From contig VBBS01000031.1 of the NCBI GenBank assembly GCA_005888745.1, positions 55,614-119,613 of the forward strand: DNA of 64,000 bases. Direction: 5' to 3'. The notes below the pieces were generated by a model, which was not told the DNA's origin, made no database searches, and saw nothing but the letters and a program-made list of their open reading frames with translations. Position 1 is the first letter of the stretch. Each line of letters starts with the position of its first letter. Of this stretch, positions 27,670 through 59,532 are shown in pieces. This stretch comes from Candidatus Bathyarchaeota archaeon. Its GTDB lineage: Archaea; Thermoproteota; Bathyarchaeia; 40CM-2-53-6. The translations under genes and the position numbers were made by a program.

Positions 27670-27782
27670 GCCGGGATGGCTGAGTGGTTAAAGCGACGGC
27701 CTCGAGATCTCAAGTGATAAGGGCCAGGACACGACAGCCGTTGGGCGTCACGCCCTCGTGGGTTCGAATCCCACTCCCGGCG
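27670..27782 (+). tRNA. tRNA-Ser(CGA) with a ~29-nt intron at the canonical 37/38 position
   Basis: Acceptor GCCGGGA/TCCCGGC, discriminator G, 3-bp D-stem GCT/AGC with a long D-loop. Anticodon stem ACGGC...GCCGT with loop CUCGAG+A, interrupted after position 37. Long variable hairpin GGGCGTCACGCCC. T-arm GTGGG-TTCGAAT-CCCAC. Confidence 0.7.
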
Positions 27783-56761: not shown

Positions 56762-57214
56762 ATGTCCACGAGCTCGCCGGAAGTTAGCGCTGATAGAATA
56801 GCGAGCGAGCTCAAGGGTAACACGTTAAGGGTATACTGGTTCGTGATGAACGCCTCTAACCAGACTGTCGGGGTTCGAGAGGCGCAGAGAGCATTGAACT
56901 TCTCAAGCCCCACCCTCGCTCTCTACCACCTGGACAAGCTTCGAGACCTCGGCCTCGTCTCGCGAGATTCCGGAGGGTACAAGCTGATCAAAGAGGTGAA
57001 AGTTGACGTTCTCAAGCAGTTCATGAAGCTTCCAGGCCAATTCTTCGTGCCTAGGTTCTCCCTCTACGCCGTCCTATTCACAGTCCTAACCATCTATTAC
57101 GCGCTAAACCTCGTAACCATCGACTTCTTCGCCTTCTTCGGCCTCCTCTTCGGTGGGCTAGGATCAGCCATCTTCTGGTTTGAAGCCGTCAAAACTTGGA
57201 GGCAGAGACCTTAG
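56762..57214 (+). CDS. Winged-helix regulator-like protein with two C-terminal TM helices
   Basis: N-terminal wHTH (...VREAQRALNFSSPTLALYHLDKLRDLGLV...), then two hydrophobic helices. Confidence 0.5.
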   Translation: MSTSSPEVSADRIASELKGNTLRVYWFVMNASNQTVGVREAQRALNFSSPTLALYHLDKLRDLGLVSRDSGGYKLIKEVKVDVLKQFMKLPGQFFVPRFSLYAVLFTVLTIYYALNLVTIDFFAFFGLLFGGLGSAIFWFEAVKTWRQRP

Positions 57215-57291: not shown

Positions 57292-57945
57292 TTGATGGAC
57301 CTAGCAAGCAGAAAGATGGTCTACTATGGCCTCTTAGGGCTGCTCATAGCTGGAGCGACGATAACCGTGTTTCGCGTAGCTCCCCAGGTCGTTCATACCT
57401 CAATACTGGCCAAAGACGGCACGCTCGACCTTTACTTCGCAAGTGTTCCGTCGGATATCCCAAGCAATAATGTTGTAACTAGTACGGACTTGCCAAATGC
57501 AAACTTGCCCATTTCTACCCACGGTCTGCTGGACCTCTCCTCCATAGTCAGTCTTGAAGTCACTATAGACTCAGTCATGATTCATAGCAATGAGGCAAAT
57601 AACACTGGCTGGATGGAAATCTCTCACAGTTCGACCACTCTTGACCTTCTCAAGCCCACAAGCGTCTCTGTGCTCATCGCAGGGGTAAAAGTCCCCGCGC
57701 AGAACATTACCATGGTCGTGCTACACGTATCAGACGCCACAGCGAGCGTCTTAGGACTGAATAGCCCCGTGCCGGTCATCGTCCCCAGTGGTAATCTGAA
57801 GATCCCTCTTGATTCAGGGGCCAGCATCAAACCCCAGATGACAACAAGCATTACCGCTGAACGCCCTCACATAATTATTGAAGGCATCAACACAATTCGC
57901 CTCTCGCCAGTCCTCCACGTAGACGACATCAGCGGTCCCAATTGA
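57292..57945 (+). CDS. Membrane-anchored extracellular Ser/Thr-rich protein
   Basis: An N-terminal TM helix followed by a beta-rich, S/T/N-rich domain. Confidence 0.4.
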   Translation: MMDLASRKMVYYGLLGLLIAGATITVFRVAPQVVHTSILAKDGTLDLYFASVPSDIPSNNVVTSTDLPNANLPISTHGLLDLSSIVSLEVTIDSVMIHSNEANNTGWMEISHSSTTLDLLKPTSVSVLIAGVKVPAQNITMVVLHVSDATASVLGLNSPVPVIVPSGNLKIPLDSGASIKPQMTTSITAERPHIIIEGINTIRLSPVLHVDDISGPN

Positions 57946-57961
57946 CAACTTGACTCTTTGG

Positions 57962-58084
57962 TAGCGGGGGGTGGATTTTCGGTCCCACGTGGGCCCTTCG
58001 AACCACCGCTTGAGGATCGAACTCGCCTCGATCAATCTCAGGGTTATGAGCCCTGCGGGTTAAACCTGGCTACCCCACCCCGCT
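57962..58084 (-). tRNA. tRNA with a CAU anticodon (initiator-like features; alternatively tRNA-Ile2), carrying two putative non-canonical introns (26 nt in the variable region, 21 nt in the T-loop)
   Basis: Minus strand: acceptor AGCGGGG/CCCCGCT (an A1:U72 pair), U8, D-stem GGGT/ACCC, anticodon stem CAGGG/CCCTG (G29-31:C39-41) with loop CUCAUAA. An extra AGATTGATCGAGGCGAGTTCGATCCTCAAGC lies before T-stem GGTGG. The T-loop TTCGAAT is interrupted by ~21 nt holding the palindrome GGGCCCACGTGGGACC. T-stem 3-prime is CCACC, discriminator A, no CCA. Confidence 0.5.
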
Positions 58085-58164
58085 GCAAGAGCGAAGCCGG
58101 TTCTGGCGAGTTTTAAAAGGTTTGACCGGAAGAAATTCTACTCGATCTCGGTGTTCTGATCGAG

Positions 58165-59532
58165 TCAGGACACAATCGGAATTGAAACTAGCGACACTAG
58201 TGTTTGATCGATTGTGTCGTCTGTTTTTGGAGAATTGGGGTGATCGATTCCATATCTAGAGGCCGGTTTGGTTAAGTGTCGATGTGCTCTGGGCGGCGGA
58301 AGGTACACTCCTACCCTGATTTTTCGGGGCTCTAGCTTTTCGACCCTTGACGTTCTTGGAAGGCGTGCTTTGCATTTTCTGCATCTGAATCCTTGATCTC
58401 TGCCCATTGATTCGCAGCGGGTGCCGCAGTTAGAACACGTAGGGTTCTCCAGCCGAACCTTATCCACCAGCCTAGTCACTTCCAGTTTCTCTACATTCAG
58501 GGTCAATTCTCGCAATGGTTGAGGGCGGATGCCACCTGAAACAGCAACCGAGTCGCCAGGGGATAGCTGGAGGGACGTATCACGAACAGATCCGGTTGCA
58601 TGGTAGGCCGCACAGTCAACCGAGCCCGTCTCGTCATGAATTCTGAAGATCACATGGCCCCCGCGAACGATTCGAGGTGAATCGCTGACATCGCCGGTGA
58701 TCACTGCGGACTGGTGGGGTCGAAGAGCTTGGATTCTGGTGTGGTAGTTGAGATGAGCATCTGTTCCTTGGTTTGTCCTGAAGATCATGACCCTTTCGAT
58801 GGGTTCATTGATCTCCAGGTGATTGAGCCCTCCAGTCACACTTGCAGGGTCTTTTCCTCTGATGCCAAGAAGAACAGGATCTGGACCGTGAGGACAAATG
58901 AGCACTCGGCCCGTTTCAGGGTCTATATTGTTGAAAGTCAATCCACGGAATAGCGCATCCATCTGTCGAACTGAATCATAGTTCACCCTTCTTTTCGTTC
59001 CAATATTTTCAGGCGTCCGGTATGCAATGATTTCGAAGGTGTGATCGTGGTCGAAATCGGCCCCCACACTCGCCAGTGCTCCGACGAGACCTCGGGACCC
59101 TTTGAGCAAGTGCACTTCTGAGCGGGCACTCTCTGCGGTCTGCCGTGCTTCATTGACTGAGAGAACATCGTGTAGTGCTCTGGAGGAAAACTCACGCAAT
59201 GGATTCGGTGCTCGGCCCTTGAGAAACACCATCGCGGGGTCCGTCGCTCGCTGCGTAAGATCCGTGGTGCGCTCGACTGTTGCTATAGCGACCTTCTTGA
59301 CATCTTCCAGTTGCTCTTCTTCGACAGTGAAATGTAATGAAAGGGCTCCGTTTCCTCGTGTTTTCCAAGGAATGTTGGGGTTGAGCCTGACCAGCCAAGG
59401 AAAGTCAAGGGGTTTGAATCCTTCGGACACCAATTCTTGGAACAGGACCGCCGCTGTGTATGTAGTACATCCTCCGAGTCTGGAATCGGTGTCGTCGACT
59501 CCAATGTGAAACTCAGTTAGCACTAGGGGCAC
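58165..59532 (-). CDS. tiaS: tRNA(Ile2) 2-agmatinylcytidine synthetase
   Basis: The N-terminal HIGVDDTDSRLGGCTTY kinase-like motif is characteristic of TiaS, as is a C-terminal zinc-ribbon CSNCGTRCE...CRKCKARL. 455 aa. Confidence 0.8.
   Translation of the reverse strand: MPLVLTEFHIGVDDTDSRLGGCTTYTAAVLFQELVSEGFKPLDFPWLVRLNPNIPWKTRGNGALSLHFTVEEEQLEDVKKVAIATVERTTDLTQRATDPAMVFLKGRAPNPLREFSSRALHDVLSVNEARQTAESARSEVHLLKGSRGLVGALASVGADFDHDHTFEIIAYRTPENIGTKRRVNYDSVRQMDALFRGLTFNNIDPETGRVLICPHGPDPVLLGIRGKDPASVTGGLNHLEINEPIERVMIFRTNQGTDAHLNYHTRIQALRPHQSAVITGDVSDSPRIVRGGHVIFRIHDETGSVDCAAYHATGSVRDTSLQLSPGDSVAVSGGIRPQPLRELTLNVEKLEVTRLVDKVRLENPTCSNCGTRCESMGRDQGFRCRKCKARLPRTSRVEKLEPRKIRVGVYLPPPRAHRHLTKPASRYGIDHPNSPKTDDTIDQTLVSLVSIPIVS

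Follow-up and report, generated by a model that had tools for sequence, protein, structure and literature searches.

The 64,000-nt stretch of DNA analysed here and called the window (contig VBBS01000031.1 of GenBank assembly GCA_005888745.1, positions 55,614 to 119,613, Candidatus Bathyarchaeota archaeon) carries on its minus strand a transfer RNA (tRNA) gene with a CAU anticodon, in which two inserts interrupt the variable loop and the T loop. From its sequence, the locus very probably encodes the precursor of the initiator tRNA, tRNA-iMet(CAU), of a soil Bathyarchaeia archaeon, with two short introns of the bulge-helix-bulge (BHB) type that would be spliced by proteins. The inserts can be drawn as BHB motifs, the helices of these motifs are kept by compensatory changes among relatives, and the tRNA body bears the marks of an initiator.

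The gene is 123 nt long up to the discriminator base A73 and is directly followed by a genomic CCA (57961..57959). In a preliminary description of this DNA it had been presented as a tRNA-like gene with clean acceptor, D and anticodon arms and a CAU anticodon, and all of these were read as claimed. The 26-nt insertion described for the variable region is present at 58034..58009 and the palindrome-containing one of about 21 nt in the TTCGAAT T loop at 57996..57976; the palindromes inside the latter are GGGCCC and CCCACGTGGG. Both of the initiator-like marks that had been named, an A1:U72 pair and three G:C pairs in the anticodon stem, were likewise found in the sequence. Removal of the two inserts in silico leaves a tRNA of 76 nt (79 nt with CCA), with the variable loop AGAUC and the T loop UUCGAAU, which is drawn by ARAGORN as a perfect tRNA-Met(cat) cloverleaf. 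The predicted splice junctions (marked by arrows) are ...CCCUGAGAU↓CGGUGG... and ...GGUUCGAA↓UCCACC..., and a single read covering both would contain CCCUGAGAU↓CGGUGGUUCGAA↓UCCACC. The parts of the gene are listed in Table 1.

Bulge-helix-bulge motifs at the two inserts

The rule applied to the inserts calls for a central helix of 4 bp and a bulge of 3 nt on each strand, with cleavage after the second nucleotide of each bulge. The place of the cut follows from canonical introns at position 37/38, since the first two anticodon bases sit in the central helix of their BHB (PMC4090602). In the hBHBh' definition, the flanking helices h and h' need at least two Watson-Crick pairs (PMC7714728). When segment pairs were deleted by brute force, thousands of variants were accepted by ARAGORN; such deletions are too permissive to locate splice sites, and these were therefore set from the BHB geometry.

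At intron 1, in the variable loop, exon UGAG pairs with intron CUCA to give the 4-bp central helix, the bulges are AU↓U and AG↓C, of 3 nt each, and the inner helix h' (GAUCGA/UCGAUC) has 6 bp. The helix h on the exon side has only 2 bp, C43-C44:G49-G50, whose bases are also claimed by the anticodon and T stems; judging from these pairings, the motif may be in the relaxed HBh' form. Of shuffled variable-loop inserts, about 0.4% conform to the BHB rule.

At intron 2, in the T loop, the central helix is formed by exon UUCG and intron CGAA (4 bp), the bulges are AA↓G and AA↓U (3 nt each), and the outer helix h is the 5-bp T stem itself. The inner hairpin reads G-(G.A)-CCC/GGG-C in the window, whose T-loop intron is a rare 21-nt allele with one C fewer than the 22-nt form. 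The latter occurs in about 87% of relatives and has two G:C pairs, a bulged A and three further pairs. The allele of the window passes only a relaxed BHB rule (one inner pair, not two), a form to which the shuffle rate given above does not apply.

Both inserts have a central helix, two 3-nt bulges and flanking helices, and a canonical tRNA remains after their removal. The preliminary description had taken them for two non-canonical introns and had asked for a BHB-compatible structure at both junctions; such a structure is drawable at both, and the comparative data agree.

Conservation and covariation among relatives

Two relatives were obtained when species-representative genomes were scanned with TiaS, the protein encoded next to the tRNA. 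These are 'Candidatus Bathyarchaeota archaeon BA_3' and 'Crenarchaeota archaeon 13_1_40CM_3_52_17', both metagenome-assembled genomes (MAGs) from soil with a TiaS 79% identical to that of the window. The same tRNA is found just downstream of tiaS in both, and in one of them a further insert, of 24 nt, lies in the D loop. A scan of metagenomes by exon sequence, in which gaps of 0-30 nt were allowed at the D-loop and variable-loop sites, gave at least 120 loci, whose soil origin is read from contig names matching JGI soil-metagenome projects. Intron 1 (23-29 nt) and intron 2 (21-24 nt) are present in every one of the loci listed, and no intron-less copy with the same exons was found among these matches. 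Exon 1 is identical in all 122 related loci, an identity that the search pattern demanded.

The unique alleles number 50 for intron 1, 35 for intron 2 and 25 for the D-loop intron. When these were fitted in an anchored register, bulges of 3 nt were obtained throughout, and the central helices were paired in all but one unique allele of the three introns. The bases of the intron-side bulges vary freely while the length of the bulge stays at 3. A MAFFT alignment of introns 1 and 2 only (77 unique precursors) was used together with a second alignment, of 42 three-intron precursors, for the D-loop intron. In the first set, 98.8% of the BHB-helix cells are paired, against 27-58% when the partners are slid by 1-3 columns; in the second the figures are 99.4% against 38-62%. 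The observed pairing was reached by none of 500 shuffles in either set. Among the 77 unique relatives, the central helix of intron 1 is paired in 100% of cells and its inner helix in 98%, and the central helix of intron 2 is paired in 99.7%. Three pairs of the intron-1 inner helix hold 27 double-change cells in this set (AU↔GC 18, CG↔UA 7, UA↔CG 2). The low rate at which shuffled variable-loop inserts satisfy the rule and the recurrence of the inserts with covarying helices place the feature beyond chance.

CCA is encoded in 117 of 121 genes, and the exons are identical across lineages whose TiaS is only 47-82% identical to that of the window. Invariant exons, an encoded CCA and a conserved TATA motif (see below) point to a functional gene.

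Initiator identity

Three initiator marks are present in the tRNA, namely A1:U72 (A at 58084, T at 57963), G29-31:C39-41, and a purine-11:pyrimidine-24 pair in the form of G11:C24. It is established that such marks exclude tRNA-Ile2 (Marck and Grosjean 2002, cited within PMC5393177). The A1-U72 pair is the hallmark that separates archaeal and eukaryal initiators from elongators, and the latter, Ile2 included, typically begin with a strong G1:C72 pair (PMC5393177). The archaeal iMet consensus has the acceptor stem of the A1-U72 variant of E. coli tRNAfMet (PMC5393177), and this stem, AGCGGGG/CCCCGCU, is the one in the present gene. In tRNAscan-SE 2.0, iMet is the best separated of the three archaeal CAU classes (iMet, Ile2 and Met) (PMC8450103).

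A blastn search of all complete E. coli genomes with the spliced sequence gave full-length matches of about 77-78% identity in each of them. The median number of matching places in a genome is four, in agreement with the four initiator genes of E. coli. The one match inspected is the initiator gene metY, between argG and rimP (78% identity over 78 nt), and in an end-to-end alignment with it the acceptor pairs 2-7, the core of the anticodon arm GGGCTCATAACCC and the AGATC variable loop are identical. The elongator-type body of an Ile2, with a strong 1:72 pair and free of initiator marks, was not found in this tRNA. The preliminary description had left the choice between an initiator and a tRNA-Ile2 linked to its modification enzyme undecided. 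The marks, the acceptor consensus and the likeness to metY favour the initiator, and the pairing of an Ile2 with its enzyme is unsupported. No other CAU tRNA (Ile2 or elongator Met) was present in the fetched loci, all of which cover this same neighbourhood.

A third intron in the D loop of relatives

A D-loop intron of 21-25 nt lies between G15 and C16 (position 15/16) in 68 of 121 related iMet genes; a search for a similar sequence in the window found none. The copies share ATTCTC...GAGAAGCC... and are all homologous. The 3' strand of their central helix alternates between GCCU, GCUU and ACCC and always pairs with exon GGGU. An alternative local fold of minimum free energy (MFE) for this region is not conserved. 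These alleles offer a natural control on the cleavage rule: once the D-loop intron is removed by the rule, the remaining sequence is identical to that of the naturally intron-less alleles.

Four identical haplotypes of introns 1 and 2 exist both with and without the D-loop intron, and loci that differ in its presence are up to 97.5% identical over 800 nt upstream (L097 and L023). By parsimony on a neighbour-joining tree of 65 TiaS sequences, the intron underwent at least 12 changes of state, a number that tree error and recombination could inflate. Since all copies are homologous, repeated precise loss or allele exchange is likelier than repeated insertion.

Fixation of the 47/48 and 59/60 introns in each of the more than 120 lineages sampled may point to an obligatory role, for which ordered folding or modification of the precursor, or the shielding of an essential single-copy gene from integrating elements, can be suggested. 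A wider proposal is that this iMet gene is a live arena of BHB-intron turnover, with the introns at 47/48 and 59/60 fixed and obligatory and the one at 15/16 precisely gained and lost time and again; we put this forward only tentatively, as something rather doubtful. If it were true, the lineage would be a natural system for watching the insertion and precise deletion of archaeal tRNA introns.

Gene neighbourhood

The preliminary description had named the neighbour about 80 nt away as tiaS. The gap is indeed 80 nt, and the identification stands on the names of the homologues and on four Pfam domains, all above their cut-offs: PF22641 (2.8e-26), PF08489 (1e-37), PF01336 (1.4e-8) and PF23783 (7.6e-11). 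The architecture is the four-domain one of TiaS, with TiaS_TCKD, TiaS_FLD, an OB-fold and a C-terminal TiaS zinc ribbon. The NCBIfam TiaS equivalog NF040849 matches over the full length with 419 bits (E = 1.2e-125), yet stays under its cut-off of 600 bits, which fits a divergent lineage. The homologues listed are the 120 closest proteins, of at least 57% identity; an identical protein (P0001) is present in the collection searched, and for close homologues JGI and NCBI give the name tRNA(Ile2)-agmatinylcytidine synthase. Two close homologues are named only 'DUF1743 domain-containing protein' by automatic pipelines.

Table 1. Features of the tRNA locus and its surroundings. Positions are those of the window, except where a related locus (L number) is given; the arrow marks a predicted intron site.
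Feature	Position	Strand	Sequence or remarks
Putative pre-tRNA-iMet(CAU) gene	57962..58084	-	reading of the sequence; spliced product is a perfect ARAGORN cloverleaf
Acceptor stem			AGCGGGG / CCCCGCT; 7 bp, A1:U72
D stem			GGGT / ACCC
Anticodon arm			CAGGG-CTCATAA-CCCTG; stem CAGGG / CCCTG, 3 consecutive G:C pairs
Anticodon CAT	58046..58048	-	
T stem			GGTGG / CCACC
Exon 1 (predicted)	58035..58084	-	tRNA positions 1-47: acceptor 5' strand, D arm, anticodon arm, variable-loop AGAT
Intron 1 (predicted), variable loop, position 47/48	58009..58034	-	26 nt, between anticodon stem and T stem
Exon 2 (predicted)	57997..58008	-	positions 48-59: C48, T-stem 5' strand GGTGG, T-loop TTCGAA
Intron 2 (predicted), T loop, position 59/60	57976..57996	-	21 nt, inside TTCGAA↓T
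Exon 3 (predicted)	57962..57975	-	positions 60-73: T60, T-stem CCACC, acceptor CCCCGCT, A73
TATA-box-like TTTTAAAA	58111..58118	-	centred about 30 nt upstream of tRNA position 1
tiaS, tRNA(Ile2) 2-agmatinylcytidine synthetase	58165..59532	-	455 aa; ends 80 nt upstream of the tRNA
150-aa protein and DUF4382 protein	56762..57214 and 57292..57945	+	downstream of the tRNA, convergent
D-loop intron, example	L001:4458-4481		absent from the window, site between 58070 and 58069
TnpB/Cas12f-like open reading frame	L023:1568-2650	opposite to the tRNA	also in L031, L040, L118; partial in L086
417-419-aa protein	L020:1024-2283, L033:1291-2550, L057:2103-3356, L027:1950-3203		

Upstream sequence of 300 nt or more is available for 103 related loci; in 87 of them tiaS lies upstream of the tRNA on the same strand, usually at a distance of 70-117 nt, and the TiaS proteins at those loci are 47-82% identical to that of the window. 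A tTtAAA(a) motif recurs at the same distance upstream of the tRNA in 83 unique upstream sequences, and also in most, not all, loci where tiaS is not the immediate neighbour; from this, TTTTAAAA is probably the archaeal promoter of the tRNA gene itself.

In one sublineage, a TnpB/Cas12f-like open reading frame of 360 aa (Pfam Cas12f1-like_TNB, 5.9e-20) stands between tiaS and the tRNA, which are then about 1.6 kb apart instead of about 80-110 nt. In another sublineage, a protein of 417-419 aa stands there, for which no Pfam hit was obtained; by eye, its N-terminus (..RKGMATIMAEVMMVVIVIIMSTIIFVWVVP..) resembles an archaeal class III (pilin-like) signal sequence. At one related locus, tiaS was not found within 5.4 kb.

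On the other side of the tRNA, the 150-aa protein (no Pfam hit) and the DUF4382 protein are syntenic with it in nearly all relatives; the former is conserved at 66-97% identity, and the latter diverges fast (32-54%). Synteny with these downstream genes is just as well kept, which means that the tRNA is not linked to tiaS in particular. Since TiaS has to reject CAU tRNAs that read AUG, this tRNA is not expected to be a substrate of the enzyme. The adjacency of tiaS is best read as inherited gene order and not as the pairing of a substrate with its enzyme.

Detection by tRNA finders

No tRNA was reported in the whole window by ARAGORN in its default mode, and lowered thresholds gave only noise. 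At its gathering score, Rfam found in the window only a tRNA-Ser(CGA) at 27670..27782; the Rfam tRNA model reaches 24.2 bits at 58012..58081, below the gathering score of 29, with the hairpin of intron 1 misread as a T arm. The mimic of the T arm is made of this hairpin and the CUC that follows it (..GAGTTCGATCCTC..). With ARAGORN -i, a false 74-nt tRNA-Met was called in 11 relatives (L009, L023, L031, L034, L040, L042, L044, L059, L066, L076 and L077). ARAGORN had been among the checks proposed in the preliminary description, and its answer is twofold: the default run misses the intact gene, and the spliced sequence gives the tRNA-Met(cat) cloverleaf. Because default finders miss the gene, Bathyarchaeia MAGs may seem to lack an initiator tRNA or may carry a wrong annotation, which the exon/intron map given here corrects.

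The tRNA-Ser(CGA) of the window (plus strand), with 53 bits on the Rfam tRNA model, has a long variable arm and is interrupted at or near 37/38 by an intron of 29 nt. The BHB cleavage rule was tried on this intron, and no obvious strict BHB was seen by eye or in the local MFE fold. As this check failed, the rule rests on the published geometry (PMC4090602) and on the D-loop-intron control. The intron of tRNA-Ser(CGA) hints at relaxed substrate recognition in this organism.

Proposed processing and alternative readings

In the proposed course of events, the precursor would be transcribed from its own TATA box about 30 nt upstream, and each insert would fold with the adjacent exon bases into a BHB motif. 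EndA would then cut after the second nucleotide of each 3-nt bulge. The expected type of this enzyme is the broad-specificity (alpha-beta)2 form, which is the main splicing endonuclease of TACK archaea, Bathyarchaeota included (PMC7714728, PMC4090602). The exons would be joined by an RtcB-type ligase, the ends would be processed, and the product would be the 76-nt tRNA with an AGAUC variable loop, a UUCGAAU T loop and a genome-encoded CCA.

The BHB of the T loop is compatible with the cloverleaf, since the T stem serves as its outer helix. That of the variable loop borrows bases from two stems, U42-G43 of the anticodon stem for the central helix and G49-G50 of the T stem for the outer helix of 2 bp, and it therefore needs an alternative conformer of the precursor or relaxed recognition. 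The D-loop BHB of relatives uses the 5' strand of the D stem. As long as they are present, the variable-loop and D-loop introns should therefore keep the precursor from taking its mature fold, or else they are recognised as relaxed HBh' motifs.

Several observations weigh against a spliced initiator precursor. The MFE structure of the whole precursor (-55.5 kcal/mol) does not correspond to the cloverleaf with its BHB motifs (-44.5 kcal/mol), and local MFE folds open the central helix of the T loop. The BHB central helices were recovered neither by folding the whole precursor nor by folding local segments, and support was therefore taken from the comparative data and not from thermodynamics. 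The inner helix of intron 2 has, in the window, a G.A mismatch at its second pair, from which the common 22-nt allele is free. The invariance of the exons in relatives is partly built into the search pattern, so that only the intron columns carry independent information. Splicing, mature ends and expression are inferred from sequence, as are ligation and the type of enzyme, and a further, intron-less copy of iMet may exist elsewhere in the genome.

The fold of the precursor, the inferred nature of the splicing and the failure of standard tRNA finders, which miss or mis-call the gene, could also be taken to mean that the inserts are never spliced, in which case the locus would be a tRNA pseudogene in decay or a tRNA-like element that has kept its expansions. 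We regard this as very unlikely, since both inserts keep the BHB register in each of the at least 120 loci listed, with helices preserved by compensatory changes, and the CCA and the TATA box are conserved; a retained 21-nt insert in the T loop is also expected, from general tRNA structure, to disrupt the contact of T loop and D loop. Still harder to credit is a tRNA-Ile2(CAU) kept beside TiaS as its substrate in a functional pair. The CAU anticodon, the tiaS gene that ends 80 nt upstream on the same strand and the recurrence of this order in relatives, with TiaS proteins as far apart as 47% identity, would suit such a pair. Against it stand A1:U72, the three G:C pairs of the anticodon stem and G11:C24, which mark an initiator, and the best E. 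coli match, which is metY and not a gene of the ileX/ileY type. The tRNA has a conserved TATA box of its own, a TnpB-like or pilin-like gene intervenes in several sublineages, one locus has no tiaS within 5.4 kb, and the downstream genes are just as syntenic.

The 24.2-bit Rfam match and the equivalent 74-nt calls of ARAGORN -i would agree with a gene that is a shorter, intron-free 'tRNA-Met' of 70-74 nt (about 58081..58012) with the intron-1 hairpin as its T arm. Of all the readings this one is the least credible. The Rfam score is under the gathering score, the match covers only model positions 4-67 and leaves the acceptor stem incomplete, and the supposed T loop varies freely among relatives, of which only 11 give the ARAGORN call. 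The full reading as an interrupted initiator has, in contrast, an acceptor stem of 7 bp, A73, CCA, a TTCGAAT T loop and similarity to metY from end to end.

Comparison with known systems

Two non-canonical introns in one tRNA had been called rare in the preliminary description. This is overstated, as two or even three introns of this kind in a tRNA are not rare in TACK archaea. In Thermoproteales, a tRNA gene has 0.84 introns on average and three at most (PMC8450103, PMC4033280), and non-canonical and multiple tRNA introns are on record for Crenarchaeota and Thermoproteales, Thaumarchaeota, Nanoarchaeota and Korarchaeota. Positions 45/46 and 59/60 are among the intron positions listed (PMC4090602), and 59/60 and the variable loop are already recorded as intron sites (PMC4090602, PMC3218864). 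In the library searched, no paper was found on tRNA introns of Bathyarchaeia specifically. The gene described here is a further example of a known phenomenon and reveals no new mechanism; new are the host (a mesophilic soil lineage), the gene (an initiator) and the combination of sites (47/48 with 59/60, with or without 15/16).

In intron type, there is a close likeness to the tRNA genes of Thermoproteales such as Pyrobaculum, Thermofilum and Caldivirga, which have short, protein-spliced introns (typical medians 12-25 nt) with BHB or relaxed BHB motifs at non-canonical sites (PMC4090602, PMC4033280, PMC8450103, PMC7714728). Their multi-intron genes, found with SPLITS and tRNAscan-SE, likewise have up to three introns and a TACK host. 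The present host is, however, a mesophilic soil Bathyarchaeia archaeon and not a hyperthermophile, the gene is that of an initiator tRNA, and the sites are 15/16 (polymorphic), 47/48 and 59/60, with no canonical intron at 37/38. Sites 47/48 and 15/16 are not named in the position list of PMC4090602, which ends with 'etc.'.

The permuted tRNA-iMet(CAU) of Thermofilum pendens is likewise an initiator with a BHB junction at 59/60 in the T loop (PMC3218864). That gene is circularly permuted, with its 3' half upstream of its 5' half, and has a 37/38 intron, whereas the gene described here is collinear and has an intron at 59/60. In Caldiarchaeum subterraneum, alleles of tRNA-Thr(GGU) with differing numbers of introns likewise coexist in natural populations (PMC3293823), and such heterogeneity points to gain and loss of introns over short time scales (PMC3293823). 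The change in Caldiarchaeum is linked with a mobile element of 1.8 kb and with a fragment of a tRNA, whereas the D-loop intron shows clean presence or absence of 21-25 nt, with no duplicated tRNA fragment seen.

In its body, the tRNA resembles archaeal and E. coli initiators in the acceptor pairs 2-7, the GGGCUCAUAACCC anticodon arm with three G:C pairs and the AGAUC variable loop, at about 78% identity to metY. Its A1:U72 pair is the archaeal initiator mark, whereas E. coli has C1xA72, a UUCAAAU T loop and no introns. Multi-intron tRNAs are best known from hyperthermophilic Thermoproteales; with this locus their range comes to include the initiator tRNA and an abundant, mesophilic lineage of soil archaea. 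The two seemingly fixed introns, together with the polymorphic D-loop intron, make a tidy data set on the gain and loss of introns.

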